Of a DNA stretch of 30,994 nucleotides, positions 924 through 30,203 are shown one piece after another. Below the pieces are notes generated by a model. The model did no database searches. It was not told the DNA's origin and worked only from the letters and a program-made list of their open reading frames with translations. The DNA comes from a virus, in the IMG/VR virus record IMGVR_UViG_3300010239_000001, positions 1 to 30,994 of that record; one strand, given 5' to 3'. The position numbers and the translations under genes are program-made. The stretch's first letter is position 1, and the number at the start of each line of letters is the position of its first letter.

Positions 924-1814
924 TTATTCTTCAAAATCAATCTCAGAGAACATGTCAATCTTGATTATGCTCCAAAAATCCCCCGCGAGATTCCTCCGAA
1001 CATACTCATAATCAAGGTAGCCGTGTCCACGGTCTCCCCAGTCCTCCCCCCAGCTGTTCCTGATTATCAGAGCCCCTTTAGTGTCGTCGTAGCCGACTGC
1101 GAGGACTGCATGGCCCCCGGCCTGCGAATCATGAGTGCTTGGAGGTTTTATGTATCCTCCGCGGGCCGCATCAGTTATGGCATCTCTATACACTGTGAAG
1201 CCAAAGAGCACGGGCTGTCCAGCTGCAAGGTGCCTCTTCACATCCCATAGAATCTCCTCTTGACTTCTGCCAATGCCATCATAGTTGTACCATGCATCCA
1301 CGCGATATTCATCCGCAAGAGCGTAAACGACGGGCTCATAGCTTCTGTCAAAGTCTCCCGTATCATAGTGCGTATTATACTTAGGATCCTCTTCTGGTGC
1401 CCCGAATCGATGCAGGGCCTGCATAGTGTGCTTTATTGTTGCTCCAGTGTCACCATTTTGGATTCCCATCAGATAGCGGTTGTGTTTGTAGATGAATAGC
1501 CTTGAAGGCGTCTTAGAATATTCCATCCCCTTGTTTTGATGATACCATCGCCTCTGATAATATTCAAGGGCCCCGGCGGCCGTGTTAGCTGTGCAGGAGC
1601 CCAGCTCGCCCTGATCGTAGACTGGGGGGAAATGTGCGCGCAGATCTACCCTCCTGGGGAGCGTGGAGGCGTCCTCGGGGACGTTGGTGTTTGTCCGTTC
1701 TTTGAGTATCTTTTCGGCTGTGAAGGCTCGAGGGTCGTCTTTTCGGATAGGGGAGGGTATCCAGCCGTAGAGCTTGTATTTGCGGCCGTTATATTTGATT
1801 TCCAAGCTCTTCAC
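924..1814 (-). CDS. papain-family (C1A) cysteine peptidase, candidate endolysin
   Basis: RVDLR..PPVYDQGELGSCTAN (oxyanion Q, catalytic C), GGHAVLAVGYDD (catalytic H), IIRNSWGEDWGDRGHG (catalytic N). The GTG start overlaps the stop of the upstream two-TM gene (GTGA). Confidence 0.92.
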   Translation of the reverse strand: MKSLEIKYNGRKYKLYGWIPSPIRKDDPRAFTAEKILKERTNTNVPEDASTLPRRVDLRAHFPPVYDQGELGSCTANTAAGALEYYQRRWYHQNKGMEYSKTPSRLFIYKHNRYLMGIQNGDTGATIKHTMQALHRFGAPEEDPKYNTHYDTGDFDRSYEPVVYALADEYRVDAWYNYDGIGRSQEEILWDVKRHLAAGQPVLFGFTVYRDAITDAARGGYIKPPSTHDSQAGGHAVLAVGYDDTKGALIIRNSWGEDWGDRGHGYLDYEYVRRNLAGDFWSIIKIDMFSEIDFEE

Positions 1815-2452: not shown

Positions 2453-3160
2453 CTATAGTTCGTAGATTTGATAGTGTATGTCATCCTCTCTTGCTTCTAT
2501 TCGCACGAAGCCAGGCGGAGATGGTGGATACAGGCGGATTAGAGCGTATTCTGGTGTCCTGGCAAAGAAATGGCCGGTGCATGCGAGGCATTTCGGCCTT
2601 GGACGGCCCATATCGTTGATATACTTTTTGTAGGCTGTGAGGTAGTGTAGATGACCGTATAGGACGATGTCAGCCCGCGTATCCTTGGTATCATTGTAGA
2701 TCTTGGAGATTGCTGTTTCTACCCTCTTTGCGCCTCCGAAACCGTGCGTAGCAAACACACGATACCTCCGTTCGCCGACGCGGATGTTGTCATGGCATTG
2801 TATCGTCACATCGCATCCGAGACGTCTGCTGATGAGCTTAGCGACGTTCAGATTGTAGTCTCGTAGCATCCGACGCTCGTGGTTTCCGATACAGTAACTC
2901 CCGATATGCTTTCTGATTGGCTTGAATAATTCGACGACAGTCTCTATTTGCTCGTCTAAAGCCATGTCTTGATGGTATACGCTGTCCCCGACCTTCTTAT
3001 CAGCCGCTTCGACCAGATCCCCAAGGAGGTAGACTCGTTTCGGATTTGGGTCGATTCTGATGGCCTCGACTGCAAGTTTTGCTTTTTGCAAGTCGACGTC
3101 CTTGTGCCCGCAGTGCAAGTCTCCAATACCGTACAGGTTCAGCTTCTCCAGACTATCCAC
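2453..3160 (-). CDS. calcineurin-like metallophosphoesterase
   Basis: All five motifs are present: GDLHCG, LLGDLVE, IGNHE, ATHG, YGHLH. Confidence 0.9.
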   Translation of the reverse strand: MDSLEKLNLYGIGDLHCGHKDVDLQKAKLAVEAIRIDPNPKRVYLLGDLVEAADKKVGDSVYHQDMALDEQIETVVELFKPIRKHIGSYCIGNHERRMLRDYNLNVAKLISRRLGCDVTIQCHDNIRVGERRYRVFATHGFGGAKRVETAISKIYNDTKDTRADIVLYGHLHYLTAYKKYINDMGRPRPKCLACTGHFFARTPEYALIRLYPPSPPGFVRIEAREDDIHYQIYEL

Positions 3161-16822: not shown

Positions 16823-17032
16823 TCACACGTTTAATTTGCTCTTTAGCTTTTTTCTCTCCTTTTCGAGCTTTTTATGCTCCTCGGCTTCACGTAAGAGCCT
16901 GAAATAATGGTAAGCGTAAAGTGCGAGGATATCTTTCTCATATTTGTGCTTTATGACCTTGGCCGGCCGCCAGCCAAGGTCTCGGCAGATTCTGCGGATA
17001 ACCTCAAATTCTGCTGACTTTGTTAAGGCGAA
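16823..17032 (-). CDS. tail assembly chaperone C-terminal extension (GT-like), reachable only by a +1 frameshift from 17004..17774; not in the ORF track
   Basis: Open frame 17071..16823 has no ATG/GTG/TTG start apart from a GTG at its last sense codon; translation FALTKSAEFEVIRRICRDLGWRPAKVIKHKYEKDILALYAYHYFRLLREAEEHKKLEKERKKLKSKLNV; ends 5 nt before the tape measure start. Confidence 0.7.
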   Translation of the reverse strand, partial: FALTKSAEFEVIRRICRDLGWRPAKVIKHKYEKDILALYAYHYFRLLREAEEHKKLEKERKKLKSKLNV

Positions 17033-17774
17033 ACAACTTGTCTGTTTCGTCTTTGGATAATCCGAGGGCTTCTAGGGTTTTGATTAAGGCAACGGATTGT
17101 AGGGCTGTTGATTGAGCCTTCCAAAACTCCAAGGCCTTCTTTTTGTCATCGGGCGGTGATAGGAAGGTTGCGAGGAATTTGGCAACGTTTTCGGTTTCTT
17201 TTGCGAGGCTCTTCATTCTGAGTTGGTCAAGCTTGAACATCAGTTCTAGGTACTCTTCTTCCTCTTTTTCGTTTTTGAGCATGCCTGTCATGCCTTTTCG
17301 CAGTTTCACGCGTTCAGCAGCCGTTAGCTGTTCGAGGATGCGCTCATCCATGTTCACCATCGATAGATCATCCCCGGGCTCTATGGGCTTAACTCTGAAT
17401 TCTAGGATGTATTCGCCCGTATTTATCCTAATCCTCTTCTCTCGATCAGGCTTGAAGACCTCAAGGAGCTCACGCTCTGTCTTCAGAACGGCCTTGAAGT
17501 TCTCAAGATCCTCCAGCGTTTTCTCGAGTCTGTTCTTTTGCTTTTTGCTCTTGATCGTCTTATCGATCTCATCTTTATATTTGACGAAGAGCTCGCGCAG
17601 ACGCTTGATTTTCAGATCATCAGAAGCCTTGATCTCGCTCTCTTCAAGCTCCTTGACAAGCTCTTGCTCATCCGCGGCCAATTTGAGTTTCTTCAAGGCT
17701 GGAAGGAACTGGTTCTTTGCAAGTTCTAGGAGCGCTTCTTTTGCGATTTGTTCGTCTGTCTTAACCTCTGCCAA
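17004..17774 (-). CDS. tail assembly chaperone (G-like)
   Basis: Helical, charged 256-aa ORF between the tube and tape measure genes; TTG start with GAGGAGGGG RBS. Confidence 0.7.
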   Translation of the reverse strand: MAEVKTDEQIAKEALLELAKNQFLPALKKLKLAADEQELVKELEESEIKASDDLKIKRLRELFVKYKDEIDKTIKSKKQKNRLEKTLEDLENFKAVLKTERELLEVFKPDREKRIRINTGEYILEFRVKPIEPGDDLSMVNMDERILEQLTAAERVKLRKGMTGMLKNEKEEEEYLELMFKLDQLRMKSLAKETENVAKFLATFLSPPDDKKKALEFWKAQSTALQSVALIKTLEALGLSKDETDKLFRLNKVSRI

Positions 17775-22920: not shown

Positions 22921-23946
22921 TTAGGGGGCGGTTGGTGCTTCTATCTTAGCCACGACTGCGCCGTTGACATCGGCGTACGTACAGTCGGCCCTCATTGATA
23001 GGACGTGCTCAACTCTTCTCGCGCTTGGTATCTTCTGAGATTCCACTGTTATTTCTCTGTAGACGCCCCAGACCATGTTATTTGGCCTGGAGAGCATAGC
23101 TACGCGCCCTACGTGAGCTGTGGCCGTTGCGTCGTCAAGCGTTGGCACGTGGACGACTGGAATACCGTCAAATGTGAGCTGCCTCTGGCCGAGAAGGGCT
23201 TCGTCGCCGATAACAGTCTCCCGGGCGGCTACCTGGTCCCTGTATGCCCTGTGGGTTTCCCAGTCAACGTAGAACCTGACGTCGCCCCGCTGGATGAGGT
23301 ATTTTTTGTCTATGGCCTCTAGCATGGCGTCAAACATGTTCATTGGGAAGTCAGCGGCGGATGGGTCAAAATCGGCAGGCGTGGAGTTGTGCTGATAGCC
23401 GTAGACCGTATTTCCGGCGAGTTTGACCCAGCCATCTGTTGCCTTCAGGATCAGAGGAGGGCTCGAAGTTGCTAGATCTGTGTCACCAAAGACGAAAGCC
23501 CTCTCTAAGTCGAGAGAGGCGCTTTCACCAAGCATTCTGACGATTCGGTCCTCGAATCTGGGGCCTTCTATCGTGTCCTCGAGTGTGTCGTAGTCTATGA
23601 CGGCACGGAGGACGAACTCCTTGGCATTTAGCATGTTCTGCTGTATGTAGCCGCTAAGTGAGAAATCGTCGACGTTCTCAGTTTCTCCTGGGATTACTTT
23701 GACTTCTTGGCCGCTAACGGTTATTCTGCCGGGATAGAGGTACCCAGTGGGCATGTCGATGGCTGCTATCTCTTTTTGGTAGCTTTTCATCCTTTCCATT
23801 CGTGCTTCGTTGAGAATAGTAGCTTCCCGCTGGACAACCTCGATAAACTCTGCTAGCTGCTCCATTGCTTTTAATCCACCAGCAATCTCGGAGTTATCGA
23901 CGATTTTAAACACTTTATTCGCTTCAAGGTATTCGTGTATGTTCAT
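22921..23946 (-). CDS. major capsid protein (HK97 fold)
   Basis: 341 aa; EQLAEFIEVVQREATILNEAR, IDYDTLED, DLERAFVFGD, DGWVKLA, LTFDGIPVVHVP, NMVWGVYREITVE..EHVLSMRAD. Confidence 0.9.
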   Translation of the reverse strand: MNIHEYLEANKVFKIVDNSEIAGGLKAMEQLAEFIEVVQREATILNEARMERMKSYQKEIAAIDMPTGYLYPGRITVSGQEVKVIPGETENVDDFSLSGYIQQNMLNAKEFVLRAVIDYDTLEDTIEGPRFEDRIVRMLGESASLDLERAFVFGDTDLATSSPPLILKATDGWVKLAGNTVYGYQHNSTPADFDPSAADFPMNMFDAMLEAIDKKYLIQRGDVRFYVDWETHRAYRDQVAARETVIGDEALLGQRQLTFDGIPVVHVPTLDDATATAHVGRVAMLSRPNNMVWGVYREITVESQKIPSARRVEHVLSMRADCTYADVNGAVVAKIEAPTAP

Positions 23947-23971: not shown

Positions 23972-26900
23972 TTATTGTTTTTTGAGTCTTCTGCCGAATG
24001 GATCTCGGCCTATTTTAGCATAGAAATCCTCTGCTCCTTCCTCTCGGGTTGTTTCTTTTAGTTTTTGGGTTTCACCCGTAGCGAGGAATTTTTTCTCGAC
24101 TTCTTCGATTTCCTCTCTAATTTTTCCGATTTTTTTGTCCAGTTTCTTCATTGCTTTCTCTATTTGTTTGGTGACGATCTTGTCGAGATTCTCTTTGGGT
24201 TTGGGCTTCTCTTGTTTCTCTGTTTTCTCAGGGGCCTTGGGCTGCTTCTCCTCTTTAGCTTCGGTGGCTTTTTCCTCCTCTTTTTCTTTCTTGGGTGCTG
24301 GGTAGGCGTCCCCACCCCTGAGAAACTCCAGAATCTTCTTGGCTGCCTCTTTAACTTCTTTTGGAGCGTCCTCAGATTCAACGATCTCCTTTAGTGCGTC
24401 TTCCAATGCTTTGCCACCTTGTTTTTCTTCTTTTTTGGCTCCTTTCTTTTCTGGTGGTGCGTAGGCATAGCCCATCACTGCAGACTCCACTTGCGCCATC
24501 GCCTGTTCTATGAGCTTCATCGCCTCTTGCAACAACTTAAGGGCGTCAACGCCCCTAGCGGCTTGTTTCTCTTTCTTTTCGGGCACATTTCTCACCTCAT
24601 CCTTGTCTCTTTTCAGTATGAGCCATTGAGCGTCAGGCACGGCTGGATTGTCGACCAGTGCAACCTCAAAAACCTTCAAGTTTTTTAGTTCGCGGGGCTC
24701 TTCGTCATCCCCGGATTCTTTGGTTTTCTTTTGGGATTTTTCGATTGCAAATTTTGGTTTGGGATTGCAGCCCATGCAGTAGCCTCCAATCGAGATACCT
24801 TTTATCTTGCCTTTTTTGACCTCTTCCCAAAGGCTGTCGTCGTAGATTTTGAATCCGAGCATCCACGTGCCTTCTGGAAGCTCAACGCCGCCTGCCTTCA
24901 AAGGTTGGCGGAGAATATACGATTCTACGATCGCAATGTCTTTTTTCTCGATGGGGATCTCGTGCATGTATGTGACCATTTGGTACCAGGCCATGAAGTC
25001 GTGTGCGGTCTCTTCGATCTCCTCTGCGGTGATGAATTCCCCATCCTTGTCTATTTTGTTTGGGACGAGCGCTGGTGCGAGTGCGAAGCGTTTCTCCTCG
25101 TCTACTTTAATTATTGGTGCGATAAACTTTTTATTGTTGGTTTTTGAGCGTTTCTCGATCTCAAATTTGTCCACTTCTATCAACTCCGGCCGTTTGCCAG
25201 GCTTAGCCCAAATCAAGTACTTCTGGCCTTTCTTTTTCAACTCTTTAACGACATCTTCGAGCTTGTGCTTATCAGCGTACGGAGTTTCGTCCGCTGGCTT
25301 ATCTATGAGCCAAACGCGTCCCCTGCCCTCCAATTCGGCGTATTGTATGATATACCGGCCTTTCAGCCTCTCTCCGTGAAGAAATACTTCAAAGGCGTGC
25401 TCTCGCCACACGCCCATTTCATAGGAGCCCCTATCGAAGAGGAAAAACTTGGAGTACTTCTTTGAGGTGCTCCCTACCTCCAAGGGCTCCGCAACGTACG
25501 GCTTTCCAACTCCAACCTGCAACCATTCCTTCGGTTGGGGTAATTTGAACTGTCCTTCGAGCTTTCGGTCAGGTTTTTGTAATAGAAGCAGTTGAGAGCC
25601 GCCGGCCTTCTTGTTCTCCTTAGGCTCGCCAAGGAAGACTGTGAAGCCCCACAAGTGGTCATTAGCGGTGAATCTGAGGTCGGCGTGGACTGAATGGCCC
25701 GTTTCAAGGAGTTCTTCATGGGAAAGCTTAGTTTCTTCTTTGGATAACCCTCTCCAGTGATGCTGGGCCACGAATTCGCCCTTGCCGGATTCTGGGTAGT
25801 TCTTCCACCAATTCTCGGCCCAGTATTTGGCCGCTCGCTCACCACGAGTCTCTCCTCCCTCCGATTCATCAGAGAGCTCTACGATAGCATCAGGACCAAA
25901 AAGATCATAATTGAACTTCATAATGTGTTTCATCCTATGTCTGGCCTTCTTGTCCTTTGCGAGGCGCGTGTAGAGCTTCTTGTAGAGCTTAGCCTCTTCT
26001 GAGACCGGTTCGTAGGATTCGAGAAATTCGAGCTTGTTTTGGTCAAACGTCCAATCTGCTTTAAGTATCTTCTGAATCGCTTTCTCTCTGATCTGCTTCT
26101 GTTTTTTTGGTTGTGATCTGGCATCGTTTAGGACGCCGGCCCGTTCAGCCAAGTCTATGGCTTGTCCTGCAGTATATGGTTCCTCCCTTGTCTTGTCAAC
26201 GTCAACAGGAACGGCCGCAGTCCAGCTCAACTCCTCCCCACCTTTTGTTTCGCGGATTATAATCTCCTGGGGCTGCACTGTGATTATATCGCCCGGCTTG
26301 GCCTGGAATATGGCGTTCATAGTCAGTTTCATGTCCACGTACGTCTCGCCCTTGAATTCTACCGTATTCTGGAAATTCAAGGAGCCTGGTAAGAGACCGC
26401 AACGGAACGAGTAAGTTCCGTTCTTGTTTCGCCGAGATTCTATCACTATGACCTTCAGCTCGACAACGTGTTTGATTTTGGCGAGCACATCAGAAGCGCC
26501 TTCGATATAGGATGCTGTTTCATCTTTGAGGACGATCCCTTCGCTCATGTCCATATTAGCGAGCTTATCCCACGCCTTTTCCAAATCTGTAAGATTTCTG
26601 ACTTTCATTTGAGTGGAGAGGTCGAAAAACTTGTTATCTTTTAAGTATTTGTTGTAGAATTCTTCGAGGAGCTTTCTGCGTTCTCTGAATGGTTTTTCAT
26701 GGAGGTCGCCGCCTTTCTCGTCCCAGTAGATGATGTCGAAGGCTGTGAAGATTGGATAGGCGTCGTCTGGGAGCGTGACCTCTTTTCCTGTTAGAGCCAT
26801 GATCCTAACCCGCGGCCAGCGCTTTCCAGCTTCGACAACGCCTATATCACCGTCAAGAATGAAATCGGCGGGTATTTTCTTGGCAGAATAGGGGATATTT

Positions 26901-27754
26901 GGTATTTGCTTGGATCGTTCTTTCTTAGCATCTTCGAAGTACAAACTCACCTTGTCCTTCTTTTTCTGCAGGATGGCTCTGAATCCGTTGAGCTTGTTCT
27001 CAGCGACGGCCTCAGGGTGCTTCTTCAGCCAATCCTGGAGCTCCTCTGGCTTGAATGCTTCAGTGCCCGCATGATACAATCCCATCCTTGGTTTGGAGGT
27101 CTGGAACGAGTAGGTTATAGGCTCCCATTTTCCTTTTGTTAATTTGGGAAGGGACTTCTTAAATTTGTTTATCATCGATGAGATGCTCTTCCGGACCTTC
27201 CAGAAAGGATTTAAGCGCTGAACATCCCTGGTTTCGCTTCTAACAAGCGCTAAGTCGTAGAGCGGCAAGTGATTCGTGAATGCGCCTTGGGGATTGTTTA
27301 TTAGGTGAATCGGAATCTCCTTGTCCGGATCTAAGGTTAGGCGGATAGGAACGTACACATTCTCAAATTTCAGCTGGTAAGCGTCCCCTTCGAGGTTGGC
27401 GCGCACGAGAATGTCTAAATCGTTGTAATCTTCCCGCCTAACCGCCGATCCAACCAATTCGATGAAATCAGGGACTATTATGATCTTCTCGGGGAGGTCG
27501 TCGAGGGAGATTGGGATATTGCTTTTCTCTTTCAGTTCTTTGTCGAGTCCATCGTGCTCGTTATGTTCCATGCCCCTCCGTTGCATCTCCGCAACTATCA
27601 AGTGATGAGCGTTGACCAGATCCTCCAGATTGATCTCTTCGCCACCCTCCTCCCTGATTTGAGGATATAACTGGTGGCAGCGGCGGTGCAGATTCAAAAG
27701 CTCTTTATCGTCGACTTCTTTCAGCCAATCTGGGGTGATTTCTTTGATTTTCAT
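23972..27754 (-). CDS. head-maturation polyprotein: helical N-domain + Pol-beta-type nucleotidyltransferase motif + ATP-dependent DNA ligase + LigD 3'-phosphoesterase-like domain + XkdF-type prohead serine protease + scaffold
   Basis: LVGSAVR..NDLDILV (aa 100-117); ENKLNGFR (K254), ILDGD, TAFDIIYW, SEGIVLKD, LAKIK, then OB-like region; FVAQHH..HADLRF..WGFTV..FDRGSY..FLHGERLKGRY (aa 661-801); ALVPNKIDKDGEFIT..MH..IVESY..PEGTWMLGFKIYDDSLWEEVKKGKIKGISIGG (aa 895-991); charged coiled-coil tail; between MuF and capsid genes. Confidence 0.85.
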   Translation of the reverse strand: MKIKEITPDWLKEVDDKELLNLHRRCHQLYPQIREEGGEEINLEDLVNAHHLIVAEMQRRGMEHNEHDGLDKELKEKSNIPISLDDLPEKIIIVPDFIELVGSAVRREDYNDLDILVRANLEGDAYQLKFENVYVPIRLTLDPDKEIPIHLINNPQGAFTNHLPLYDLALVRSETRDVQRLNPFWKVRKSISSMINKFKKSLPKLTKGKWEPITYSFQTSKPRMGLYHAGTEAFKPEELQDWLKKHPEAVAENKLNGFRAILQKKKDKVSLYFEDAKKERSKQIPNIPYSAKKIPADFILDGDIGVVEAGKRWPRVRIMALTGKEVTLPDDAYPIFTAFDIIYWDEKGGDLHEKPFRERRKLLEEFYNKYLKDNKFFDLSTQMKVRNLTDLEKAWDKLANMDMSEGIVLKDETASYIEGASDVLAKIKHVVELKVIVIESRRNKNGTYSFRCGLLPGSLNFQNTVEFKGETYVDMKLTMNAIFQAKPGDIITVQPQEIIIRETKGGEELSWTAAVPVDVDKTREEPYTAGQAIDLAERAGVLNDARSQPKKQKQIREKAIQKILKADWTFDQNKLEFLESYEPVSEEAKLYKKLYTRLAKDKKARHRMKHIMKFNYDLFGPDAIVELSDESEGGETRGERAAKYWAENWWKNYPESGKGEFVAQHHWRGLSKEETKLSHEELLETGHSVHADLRFTANDHLWGFTVFLGEPKENKKAGGSQLLLLQKPDRKLEGQFKLPQPKEWLQVGVGKPYVAEPLEVGSTSKKYSKFFLFDRGSYEMGVWREHAFEVFLHGERLKGRYIIQYAELEGRGRVWLIDKPADETPYADKHKLEDVVKELKKKGQKYLIWAKPGKRPELIEVDKFEIEKRSKTNNKKFIAPIIKVDEEKRFALAPALVPNKIDKDGEFITAEEIEETAHDFMAWYQMVTYMHEIPIEKKDIAIVESYILRQPLKAGGVELPEGTWMLGFKIYDDSLWEEVKKGKIKGISIGGYCMGCNPKPKFAIEKSQKKTKESGDDEEPRELKNLKVFEVALVDNPAVPDAQWLILKRDKDEVRNVPEKKEKQAARGVDALKLLQEAMKLIEQAMAQVESAVMGYAYAPPEKKGAKKEEKQGGKALEDALKEIVESEDAPKEVKEAAKKILEFLRGGDAYPAPKKEKEEEKATEAKEEKQPKAPEKTEKQEKPKPKENLDKIVTKQIEKAMKKLDKKIGKIREEIEEVEKKFLATGETQKLKETTREEGAEDFYAKIGRDPFGRRLKKQ

Positions 27755-27773: not shown

Positions 27774-28721
27774 CTATCTTCGTGGCAGCTGGAGCCAGCT
27801 AGTGTCTTTTGGGGCTACGGGTACTATCGTACATCTACAGTTGGGATGCATTGGGATTAGAGTCTTTAGTATTGGATCGGAGGCGTTGAAGATCCTCCCT
27901 TCGTATTTTAGGCATCGTCCGCAGACTTTGGAGTCACCTGCGGTCACGTACATGACCTGTGAGACTCCAGCGGCTTGGAAAGCCTCTAATTTGGCTGTTT
28001 GGGTTGCTGCTGCGAGCTCTGTCCTTGCAATCCGCTCAAACTGGTATGATACTTTTGTCCATTCTTCTCCGCCGGGTTTTAGCCTGGACAAGATCCTTTG
28101 GGCGATGTCTTGGGCTGCGACTTCTCGCGTTTTGAGTTCGGCGATTGTGTCCCCGAGATTTTTAGCCATTCGTCGGGGGAAGGCTTGTAAGGCCGGCCTG
28201 GCATATTCTTGGAAGCGTGCGTTGATCTTTCGCGGATCAACGTCTGGGATTTGGTAGGCTGATGGTCTAAGGTTCAATGATCGCAGTAATGATTCGAGGG
28301 AGGATGTGTAGGTTTTTTCCAGCGTGCCGGCCATTCGAGTTCTGAGGGTTTGGTCCATGCGGGTCATTCTGCGGTCGTATAGGCTTGCAATCGCAAGAAT
28401 CAAGAATATGTCTTCTCTATCGAGATCAAGAAGCTCCAGCTCTCCTATGAGGCTTTCATGTTCTTCTGTTTCTTCTGTTTCTTGTTTTTCTGTCTTGATC
28501 TGGTTTCGGGCCCATCGGTTAACAAGTTCTTCGATGGCGGGGTAGATTTCTGCAGCCATCTCTTCGACAGCAGCCAGGATCTCTTTGGTTCCTTGTATGA
28601 CGAGTTGCCTGGTCCTGCGGTAATCGGTGGATGGTCTGATGAGCGGTTTGGCCTTGCTGCGCATTGCGATGATCTTCAATTCGCGGATGGCGTCGTTTAT
28701 GTCATCTATCAACTCTATCAT
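27774..28721 (-). CDS. MuF/SPP1 gp7-like minor head protein
   Basis: ERIARTE..A..LEAFQAAGV..YVTAGDSKVCGRC..GRIF..PMHPNCRCTIVP. Confidence 0.92.
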   Translation of the reverse strand: MIELIDDINDAIRELKIIAMRSKAKPLIRPSTDYRRTRQLVIQGTKEILAAVEEMAAEIYPAIEELVNRWARNQIKTEKQETEETEEHESLIGELELLDLDREDIFLILAIASLYDRRMTRMDQTLRTRMAGTLEKTYTSSLESLLRSLNLRPSAYQIPDVDPRKINARFQEYARPALQAFPRRMAKNLGDTIAELKTREVAAQDIAQRILSRLKPGGEEWTKVSYQFERIARTELAAATQTAKLEAFQAAGVSQVMYVTAGDSKVCGRCLKYEGRIFNASDPILKTLIPMHPNCRCTIVPVAPKDTSWLQLPRR

Positions 28722-28730
28722 GGATTCTCC

Positions 28731-30203
28731 TCAAAGCCTCTTCTCGATCCGAGATTTCAAGGTTTCAAGGGTTTCGATTATCTTGTTGACGGCTTCTTCT
28801 TCTCTTGGAGCCTCTACTGGCTGGCCTCTGATGTAATGGCAGTCCATGAGCGGGTGATCTGATGGTTTGATGTTGTATCGGCCGCTGAAACGCTTGATAA
28901 GCTCGTTGGGCGTCATAGCCCCAGCATCGAACAATTTCAGACAGTTTTGCAGATCCTGATCATCCTTCTCAACGTCAACGTTTCTGAACCTGAACTCCCA
29001 GTCGGCTGTGTTGAAGCCTCTGGGGTCCCGGATTATGTAGCGGTTGATTGCCTCCTCCCAAAGGCGTTGTCTGTGCTGTATGATGCCTTGTTTGTAGTTG
29101 ATCCTTGTCATCTGGGCTGTGTTGCCTCCGAGGGCGCCTACTTGCATGACTCCAATCCTGTAGGGGTCGACTCCATGCGCTGTGATGATTTCGTCGCGGT
29201 TATCCATCCCGTATAGGCGGAAGCTGGCCTCCTTCGTCTCCACTGATAATTTCTCAAATTCTACTTTGATATTGGAGTTTTTCTCGCCCGGAATGGCGAG
29301 TATCAGGGGAGTGTGGGGATTTCTGACGATTTCTTTGAAATGGCGTTCTATAGCTTCTTGCAGGACAGTAGAACCCGTTGGTTGCCCGTTCTCGTCCAGG
29401 ATCGCCTCATCTTCAAAATCTCCAGTAATGAAGACCGCATAGGACGGCACACCATAGTTTTTGAAAAATGAGATATTATAATCTTTGCGGGCCTCTTCGG
29501 CCGCTATACTGTGAATAGCAGGCACATAATCAGGCACACCGTAATAGGAGCTGCGAGTGGAGTAATTATGAATCATGATGAGTTCGTTGGCGGCCACGTC
29601 GCCGGACAAGCTCCCAAGGGGATACTCTTCACCAGTGTCCATATGCACGTCTTTTTCATAGCCAAAACGCTTGAACCAACGGTACTTAATACCATCCCAG
29701 CTTTGTGCGTACTTGTTCTCGCTTTTGTGGATCCGTATGGTTGCGGCCGGCACATGCTCCAACGATTTGATCTTCCCATGGTGTATGCCACCGTATCTGA
29801 CTATTTCAAGGCAAGCCCAGCCCACTTCTTCAAAATCTTGCGCAGCTTTCAAGAGTGTGGTCTCGAATGAAGGATATAAGCTCTTAAAGAACTTCTCGAT
29901 CTCTTTGCGCTCCTCTTCGTCGGCCTCGTCGGAAACGGCGACCAGTTCCCAGCCTTGGCCCACGGTATCGACTGCTTTCGTTGCGCAGCAGCGGGCATGG
30001 AATGTGTTCTTTTCTGAGAGGGATGCGAGGCCAAAGGGATTGTATGGGGGCTCTACAAGGCCTTTCCTCGCGTATTTGCCTCTGAAGGTGTCGGATTTCA
30101 GTTGCTTGGATTCTCCGGCGATTTCGTACTGTTTTAGGACTGATTGGGACACGAATCTGCCGCCTTCAACCACAACACCGAACGGTATCCTCTTCCTGGT
30201 CAT
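28731..30203 (-). CDS. portal protein (PBSX-like)
   Basis: GLVEPPYNP..HARCCATKA..HVPAATIR..ELIMIHNY...YYGVPDY..YNISFFKNYGVPS..HGVDPYRIG..GAMTPNE. Confidence 0.92.
   Translation of the reverse strand: MTRKRIPFGVVVEGGRFVSQSVLKQYEIAGESKQLKSDTFRGKYARKGLVEPPYNPFGLASLSEKNTFHARCCATKAVDTVGQGWELVAVSDEADEEERKEIEKFFKSLYPSFETTLLKAAQDFEEVGWACLEIVRYGGIHHGKIKSLEHVPAATIRIHKSENKYAQSWDGIKYRWFKRFGYEKDVHMDTGEEYPLGSLSGDVAANELIMIHNYSTRSSYYGVPDYVPAIHSIAAEEARKDYNISFFKNYGVPSYAVFITGDFEDEAILDENGQPTGSTVLQEAIERHFKEIVRNPHTPLILAIPGEKNSNIKVEFEKLSVETKEASFRLYGMDNRDEIITAHGVDPYRIGVMQVGALGGNTAQMTRINYKQGIIQHRQRLWEEAINRYIIRDPRGFNTADWEFRFRNVDVEKDDQDLQNCLKLFDAGAMTPNELIKRFSGRYNIKPSDHPLMDCHYIRGQPVEAPREEEAVNKIIETLETLKSRIEKRL

Follow-up and report, generated by a model that had tools for sequence, protein, structure and literature searches.

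A viral prohead protease fused to a putative DNA strand-break repair enzyme set

The IMG/VR virus record IMGVR_UViG_3300010239_000001 (30,994 bases; the window in what follows is this whole record, which IMG/VR classes as linear and for which CheckV estimates ~36% of a genome) encodes on its minus strand a 1260-amino-acid polyprotein, P0001, in which a series of enzyme-like domains precedes an XkdF-type prohead protease and a scaffold-like tail (Table 1). From the N-terminus, the series comprises a helical domain resembling T4 endonuclease V, a minimal nucleotidyltransferase (NTase), an ATP-dependent DNA ligase and a LigD-type 3'-phosphoesterase (PE). We propose, with a probability of about one half, that P0001 is a DNA strand-break repair kit that is loaded into the prohead and ejected with the viral genome. 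A first-pass annotation of the same DNA had named the NTase, ligase, PE, protease and scaffold; the domain at residues 1-81 is an addition to that list.

A conserved fusion of enzyme-like domains to a prohead protease

The C-terminal part of P0001 ties the polyprotein to the head module. Its protease matches Pfam Peptidase_S78_2 (PF14550) over residues 881-992 with 82.6 bits against a threshold of 24, and conservation reaches 97% or more at D902, H931 and S988. Residues 857-1260 share 38-39% identity with ORF12 of psiM2 and psiM100, so that both the profile match and this homology bear out the XkdF assignment of the first-pass annotation. The scaffold that it had placed at the C-terminus holds as well: the tail is helical and rich in lysine and glutamate, is covered by PHROG head-protease and scaffold profiles, and has a counterpart in three relatives (L018, L030 and L090) in which the scaffold is a separate open reading frame (ORF) following XkdF. 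Pfam and PHROG matches of the neighbouring genes confirm that the ORF occupies the protease slot between the MuF-like gene and the capsid gene, and the XkdG-like capsid protein is 34-36% identical to the capsid proteins of psiM2, psiM100 and Drs3. In psiM2, ORF12 (351 amino acids) fills the same slot before an XkdG-like capsid gene but is an XkdF-scaffold protein that lacks the N-terminal enzyme extension. The 860-residue enzyme block of P0001 thus appears as an N-terminal accretion on an ordinary protease-scaffold protein.

Misassembly, which had been named beforehand as a refuting outcome, is an unlikely source of the 1260-amino-acid ORF, because two independent assemblies carry it uninterrupted and in the same context. 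One is L088, a GenBank contig from a metagenome-assembled genome (MAG; JBFXIQ010000019.1), which is 98.9% identical in nucleotide sequence over 11.5 kb; the other is L094, a Logan assembly of run SRR6318356, whose protein P0002 is 99% identical and has the same neighbours. The single continuous ORF reported at the outset is therefore confirmed. Homologues with 55-58% identity are equal to P0001 in length and layout.

The suspicion that uncharacterised homologues may exist proved an understatement. An exhaustive HMMER search with residues 1-870 recovered 1055 representatives of 50%-identity clusters at E <= 0.001, of which 281 reached E <= 1e-30. Most have three matched stretches and lengths of 400-2000 amino acids. 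IMG/VR holds relatives at no fewer than 139 loci (at least that many were counted), 80 of which were fetched. Among the 66 untruncated loci, picked by the PE domain alone, NTase, ligase and PE are present at 61, and 47 join NTase, ligase, PE and XkdF in one ORF, always in this order. A census of XkdF fusions had been suggested as a check in the first-pass annotation. L059, which at first seemed to break the pattern, ends in a divergent XkdF, and in relatives without a fused XkdF the next gene encodes an S78 protease or a large capsid-domain protein. In two of them (L028:7216-9636 and L091:6786-9206) there is no XkdF in the enzyme ORF, and the next gene encodes a protein of 807 amino acids; that of L028 contains Phage_capsid_4 in its C-terminal 300 residues, preceded by an N-terminal part of 500 residues, and the protein may be a protease/scaffold-capsid fusion. 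Even in diverged loci with another capsid family (phrog_1005), the polyprotein still lies between MuF and the scaffold/capsid genes.

In two complete relatives, identified by direct terminal repeats, the polyprotein is the only XkdF/S78/ClpP-type protease recognised, and it also contains the only PF01068 ligase recognised. The invariant order at 47 of 66 loci and the presence of a sole protease in these two genomes strengthen the earlier argument that the protein would have to enter the prohead.

Around the shared core, relatives insert further modules: a class I S-adenosylmethionine-dependent (SAM) methyltransferase (about half of the closest 31 relatives), Dam, Dcm, uracil-DNA glycosylase (UDG), 2H phosphoesterase and a metallo-beta-lactamase (MBL) fold. 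The number of domains per ORF is five or six in P0001 and up to about eight in relatives. These accessory modules look as if they act on DNA or resemble counter-defence functions.

The capsid protein and the protease of the window are nearest to those of Methanobacteriales viruses (34-39% identity), which conflicts with the binning of L088 in a Synergistaceae MAG. MAGs containing other relatives are assigned to Dehalococcoides, Desulfobacteraceae, Chloroflexota, Methanothrix and Thermogutta. For viral contigs, such binning is weak evidence of the host. The family seems to occur across anaerobic bacteria and perhaps also in archaea.

Signatures of the individual domains

The ligase matches Pfam DNA_ligase_A_M (PF01068) at residues 238-428 with 72.2 bits (cut-off 26.2) and the archaeal DNA ligase 3gde in the PDB with E 5.5e-8. 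Its best NCBIfam match is the ligase domain of non-homologous end joining (NHEJ) proteins (E 2.3e-16), and a profile of the family retrieves dozens of DNA ligase structures from the PDB (lowest E 6.8e-24). Judged by these matches, the enzyme is a member of the DNA-ligase clade. The motifs I, III, IIIa, IV and V and the OB region called in the first pass all stand, as does the position of K254 inside motif I (codon at 26993..26995). This lysine is kept in 209 of 211 homologues and the EG of motif IV in 215 of 216; motif V KxK is conserved, and the family alignment runs on through the OB region at residues 433-545. The protein departs from the KxDGxR scheme in having KLNGFR as motif I, and the acidic residue of motif III is D, not E. 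We considered the D-to-N change in motif I as the mark of a dead ligase and rejected this, because N (60%) and D (40%) alternate at the third position across the family and the other catalytic residues are invariant. The linker at residues 546-635 is the place at which UDG or 2H modules are inserted in relatives (P0009, P0027 and P0032). In another homologue, P0016 (1435 amino acids), the ligase itself is split at residues ~581-937 by an insert of ~355 residues with a LAGLIDADG domain, which looks like an intein or a homing-endonuclease insertion within the ligase.

The PE of P0001 scores below the threshold of Pfam LigD_N (PF13298; 16.9-17.8 bits against 31.1), whereas the same domain of a 48% identical relative, P0030, exceeds it with 44.2 bits over profile positions 6-106. 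An AlphaFold model of residues 601-875 (predicted local distance difference test score, pLDDT, 88.6) gave seven Foldseek matches at E <= 0.001, all seven to the PE of LigD or of archaeal proteins with probability 1.00; the highest template-modelling (TM) score by target was 0.81, to 3p43. The PE-like domain of the first-pass annotation is thus upheld by the fold of P0001 and the profile match of its relative. H666, H690, D692 and R694 are 100% conserved in 248 homologues. We take these residues to be the equivalents of LigD His42, His48, Asp50 and Arg52, on the basis of a motif alignment rather than a superposition. Relative to the LigD PE, the domain contains an insertion of ~20 residues. It forms a divergent subfamily, whose substrates may differ from those of LigD.

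Of the domain calls, the NTase is the least supported, and we consider a Pol-beta-type assignment probable. The signature hG[GS] x9-13 Dh[DE]h is present, its G102, S103, D112 and D114 are each kept in 97-99% of 213 homologues, and the modelled beta-GS-helix-DxD-beta topology fits. D167, the candidate third catalytic carboxylate, is common and is replaced by S in some members. The region has no Pfam match and no sequence match in the PDB, and a profile built from 46 N-domains found nothing meaningful among PDB sequences. Foldseek against the PDB gave weak matches (E 0.5-2) to MNT, HI0073 and 2rff, and five of ten rows of an ESM-Atlas shape search were PF18765/PF01909 clusters matching residues 92-169 (TM-by-target about 0.28-0.57); VIA searches for the fold were swamped by a helical hairpin. 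A protein-language-model search with residues 80-205 scored 0.82-0.85, mostly to unnamed viral clusters, and serves as a lead only, and a profile search for stand-alone N-domains returned 11 proteins, none with a Pfam name. The conserved GS..DxD motif, the topology and the weak fold matches make the NTase called in the first pass probable.

Two short proteins, P0181 (277 amino acids) and P0182 (349 amino acids), consist of an NTase core with GS..DLD intact that is joined directly to XkdF. The NTase therefore also exists as protease-anchored cargo without ligase or PE.

At the N-terminus, residues 1-81 score 20.1-20.8 bits against Pfam PF03013 on their own and 24.3 bits together with neighbouring stretches (cut-off 23), and the N-terminal domain of 9 of 21 homologues matches the same family. 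In an ESM-Atlas fold search, a Pyr_excise cluster ranks first (TM 0.52 by target), and hhalign against the Pyr_excise protein L095 gives E 0.0015 with a probability of 16.5%. L095 (G005:C1:15855-16199) is a bona fide Pyr_excise protein of 114 amino acids with its HRE motif intact, encoded by a separate gene in a complete relative genome. The catalytic glutamate of T4 endonuclease V is Glu23. In P0001, Arg25 aligns with the catalytic Glu of the L095 HRE motif, and the residue is Arg in at least 90% of the family. Because a conserved Arg replaces the catalytic Glu, the domain is probably a glycosylase-derived, non-catalytic DNA-binding module; an active pyrimidine-dimer glycosylase that completes a base-excision pathway was rejected on the same ground. 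Its homology to a family of DNA glycosylases would favour DNA over RNA or protein as what the adjoining NTase acts on.

Table 1. Domains of the polyprotein P0001 and genes flanking it in the window
Feature	Positions	Strand	Residues	Basis
Polyprotein P0001	23972..27754	minus		1260-aa ORF without internal stops
Helical domain like T4 endonuclease V (Pyr_excise)	27512..27754	minus	1-81	PF03013, fold, hhalign
Minimal Pol-beta-type NTase core (probable)	27215..27493	minus	88-180	VGS 101-103, DLD 112-114
Ligase adenylation domain	26459..27067	minus	230-432	Motif I KLNGFR, motifs III, IIIa, IV (SEGIVLK), V (KIK)
Ligase OB-fold domain	26120..26458	minus	433-545	Motif-VI-like D-x-D-K-x-R; D520, R523 conserved
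Helical linker, low confidence	25850..26119	minus	546-635	pLDDT <50 at model start
LigD-type 3'-phosphoesterase fold	25169..25849	minus	636-862	Foldseek 3n9b, 3p43, 3p4h, 5dmp, 2lj6
XkdF-type prohead serine protease	24776..25132	minus	875-993	Pfam PF14550, PHROG head maturation protease profiles
Scaffold-like tail	23975..24775	minus	994-1260	K/E-rich, helical; PHROG 34096 and 80 coverage
Major capsid gene (XkdG-like), immediately downstream of polyprotein	22921..23946	minus		PHROG 1623, E 3e-66
MuF-like minor head protein gene, immediately upstream of polyprotein	27774..28721	minus		Pfam Phage_Mu_F 51.6 bits; PHROG 115
Portal gene, upstream of MuF-like gene	28731..30203	minus		Pfam Phage_portal; PHROG 12

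Proposed mechanism and competing explanations

The arrangement of P0001 suggests how a set of enzymes could be carried from one cell to the next. The C-terminal XkdF-scaffold, an ordinary part of the psiM2/PBSX type, would co-assemble with the capsid protein and draw the 860-residue cargo into the prohead. Because a prohead protease must sit inside the prohead and the fusion is conserved over wide divergence, the N-terminal fusion is best explained as a loading device, and capsid loading is to this extent well supported by inference. During head maturation, XkdF would cut the polyprotein. The folded enzymes (domains of 10-40 kDa) would be too large to exit the shell, would stay with the DNA and would be ejected through the tail. 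In the new cell, nicks, gaps and cohesive breaks of the viral genome, arising from damage gathered in the particle or from host nucleases, would then be cleaned, filled and sealed before viral gene expression.

Each domain can be given a place in this scheme. The endonuclease V-like domain, lacking the catalytic Glu, may bind distorted, nicked or damaged DNA. The Pol-beta-type NTase may extend a 3'-OH by one or a few nucleotides, which could be ribonucleotides, and the PE, Mn-dependent as in LigD, may strip a 3'-phosphate or surplus 3'-ribonucleotides. The ATP-dependent ligase could be loaded as ligase-AMP. Because the core catalytic residues are nearly invariant across more than 200 diverse homologues, the domains look functional, but they form a distinct subfamily, whose exact substrates may differ from those of LigD. 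We infer prohead incorporation, cleavage, retention and ejection, together with all of the enzymatic activities and their substrates, from these sequences and models.

The first-pass annotation had likened the protein to the LigD system of NHEJ. The logic of adding, healing and sealing carries over. Ku (PF02735) was not found in the records of five relatives, two of them complete. For this reason, we favour a role in sealing nicks, gaps and cohesive ends over a Ku-type joining of double-strand breaks.

Several considerations weigh against a repair kit that is packaged and ejected. If every scaffold copy bore the cargo, the prohead would be very crowded, and the proposal thus needs unproven internal initiation or a low copy number. 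Candidate internal starts exist: an ATG at M994, just past XkdF (24773..24775, minus strand), has GGAGG upstream, and a GTG at residue 1057 (24584..24586, minus strand) has GAGGTGA upstream. If used, they could yield a cargo-free scaffold nested in the polyprotein, for which lambda C/Nu3 is a precedent. It is common for prohead proteases and the fragments derived from them to exit the head, and the proposal assumes that the cargo is retained. The N of ligase motif I, in place of the D of canonical ligases, leaves room for other substrates or another chemistry. In the PE, Q740 (74% Q) and W744 (100% W) presumably occupy the positions of Pseudomonas LigD His84 and Tyr88, by motif alignment; the conserved H786 and E789 could substitute for them. 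The NTase assignment depends on a motif plus weak fold matches, and a core of ~95 residues without finger or thumb may not be a DNA polymerase. Finally, tblastn against 50,697 cultured phage records matched only the protease part (psiM2 and psiM100) and found no carrier of the cargo.

The explanation that survives best beside ejection, although we consider it unlikely, gives the loaded enzymes a task in the producing cell, either inside the prohead or while the DNA is being packaged, where they would seal nicks, trim or fill ends and maintain the genome with ATP diffusing through the shell. The fusion and the head-module evidence fit this equally well, the genes lie in a late structural operon, and nothing in the data discriminates the site of action. 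On the other hand, the DNA methylases, UDG, 2H and MBL modules of relatives are most readily understood as countering host defences on entry, and tightly packed DNA leaves enzymes little mobility. To our knowledge, the phage enzymes that reside inside capsids (T4 Alt and internal proteins, N4 virion RNA polymerase, P1 Dar) exert their function once they have been ejected.

The first-pass annotation had listed RNA repair and protein adenylylation as alternatives, and a somewhat less likely explanation than action within the capsid is indeed that P0001 serves to repair or modify RNA, for example tRNAs cut by anticodon nucleases or HEPN RNases, or that its NTase nucleotidylates a protein in the manner of MNT while ligase and PE work on the ends of RNA. 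The minimal NTases nearest in fold are MNT-like, LigD PE acts on 3'-ribonucleotides, a few relatives have 2H (LigT-like) phosphoesterases, and 3-4 of 21 homologues show sub-threshold RNA_ligase and capping-enzyme Pfam matches. Yet the ligase matches DNA ligases best, the NHEJ ligase domain among them, and the commoner accessory domains are the DNA enzymes Dam, Dcm and UDG. RNA cut by nucleases needs a 5'-kinase, and domain scans of relatives showed no such domain. With an N-terminal domain that is related to a DNA glycosylase in addition, RNA repair is disfavoured.

It is more improbable again that the fusion merely couples expression, with the enzymes freed late in the cytoplasm to serve replication, recombination or genome ends without being packaged. 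Such a role could draw on the two complete relatives, whose replication might need the only ATP-dependent ligase recognised in them, but a replication ligase made from a late head operon would arrive too late. In general, prohead proteases become active once the prohead has assembled around them. That the enzymes are strictly attached at the N-terminus of the protease across very divergent phages and capsid types argues for targeting, as do the NTase-XkdF mini-fusions.

Least probable of all, the domains could be catalytically dead and act as structural or DNA-binding filler, much like internal proteins of the head with a part in condensing or piloting DNA, as the missing Glu of the endonuclease V-like domain, the D-to-N change of ligase motif I and the Q/W pair of the PE might suggest; the near-invariance of the ligase lysine, motifs IV and V, the PE ligands and the NTase GS/DxD over more than 200 homologues is unexpected for filler, and the alternation of N and D at motif I indicates that N is tolerated.

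Relation to known systems and neighbouring genes

By analogy, the closest functional counterpart of the proposed repair kit is bacterial LigD and the archaeal NHEJ set (Ku, ligase, AEP and PE; 3n9b, 3p43 and 5dmp), which likewise combine an ATP-dependent ligase, a PE fold and an enzyme that adds nucleotides. LigD employs an AEP polymerase and depends on Ku, whereas P0001 has a minimal Pol-beta NTase following an endonuclease V-like domain; AEP primase-polymerase is absent from Pfam and NCBIfam scans of P0001. The order NTase-ligase-PE and the fusion to a capsid protease also set it apart.

Enzymes that are packaged in the head and ejected are familiar from P1 Dar (including the DarB methyltransferase-helicase), T4 Alt and internal proteins, and the N4 virion RNA polymerase; Dar serves anti-restriction. 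Their targeting relies on capsid-targeting peptides, DarA/Hdf or portal-proximal assembly. Unlike P0001, these systems comprise no ligase/PE/NTase set and no fusion to a prohead protease.

Delivery from phage heads together with the DNA, early in infection, has been proposed for polyvalent and MuF-fused effectors (Iyer, Burroughs, Anand, de Souza and Aravind 2017, PMC5512222). Like P0001, polyvalent proteins unite several unrelated enzymatic domains in one polypeptide of the head module with a built-in peptidase. By contrast, their hub is a zincin-like metallopeptidase and their anchors are of the MuF, portal or DarA type (PMC5512222). By term search, that paper mentions no XkdF and no LigD-type PE, names ATP-grasp RNA ligases as the only ligases, and places Pol-beta NTases only in proteins of conjugative elements (PMC5512222). 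P0001 instead uses the prohead serine protease as its anchor, and what it carries is a putative repair set of ligase, PE and NTase.

Two viral repair systems bear on the proposed function. According to its abstract, PhiKMV gp17, a phage ATP-dependent ligase, mends nuclease breaks and lowers sensitivity to Cas12a and EcoRI (bioRxiv 10.64898/2026.09.21.753257). It differs from the ligase of P0001 in being a stand-alone gene without a PE or NTase partner, and the abstract is silent on virion packaging. Because a stand-alone phage ligase suffices, on this account, to blunt attack by Cas12a and EcoRI, a counter-defence role for P0001 is plausible. African swine fever virus carries its repair enzymes in the particle. 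Its base-excision-repair set, in which Pol X, a minimal polymerase of the Pol-beta family, is combined with an ATP-dependent ligase and an AP (apurinic/apyrimidinic) endonuclease, acts on damaged viral DNA (PMC8450572). This set belongs to a eukaryotic virus, is encoded by separate genes and has an AP endonuclease instead of a PE.

The first-pass annotation knew of no characterised example, and our literature search agrees: within the literature searched (one RNA-repair survey fell outside its scope), XkdF-fused ligase/PE/NTase proteins are not described. Anchor and cargo are in this sense undescribed, a variation on the theme of polyvalent and capsid-delivered effectors, in a family that is large and has a plausible function.

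A more far-reaching generalisation, which we put forward as possible though doubtful, is that P0001 represents a class of tailed viruses, widespread and so far undescribed, that infect anaerobic bacteria and perhaps archaea, and in which the prohead protease hooks an ejected repair pathway and thereby provides a Ku-independent analogue of LigD. This pathway would consist of an endonuclease V relic that binds lesions or nicks, a Pol-X-like NTase in the place of AEP (eukaryotic end joining likewise uses such an enzyme), a ligase that is already adenylated, and an enzyme that cleans 3' ends. It would act as a counter-defence at the level of protein, independent of sequence, and repair virion damage and nuclease cuts before gene expression.

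If the enzymes are packaged and injected, the virus would bring a ready-made repair pathway, a generic answer to restriction, CRISPR nucleases and extracellular damage that requires neither gene expression nor a specific inhibitor. The XkdF prohead protease would then offer a natural and modular way to bring large enzymes into capsids, of use in phage and capsid cargo engineering. Possible reagents include a compact ligase with a KxNG motif I, a divergent 3'-phosphoesterase and an NTase of ~95 residues. With hundreds of clusters at 50% identity, the function of one member would annotate many metagenomic genes.

Elsewhere in the window, the minus-strand gene at 17004..17774, in the position of the tail chaperone, has a sub-threshold Pfam match to a ParE toxin (18 bits; cut-off 23) that is probably due to chance. 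Near the end of the structural module, at the expected place of a lysin, 924..1814 (minus strand) encodes a cysteine peptidase of the papain family (C1) that also gives a weaker, C39-like match. A gene for a calcineurin-like metallophosphoesterase lies at 2453..3160 (minus strand), amid tail-fibre and lysis genes.

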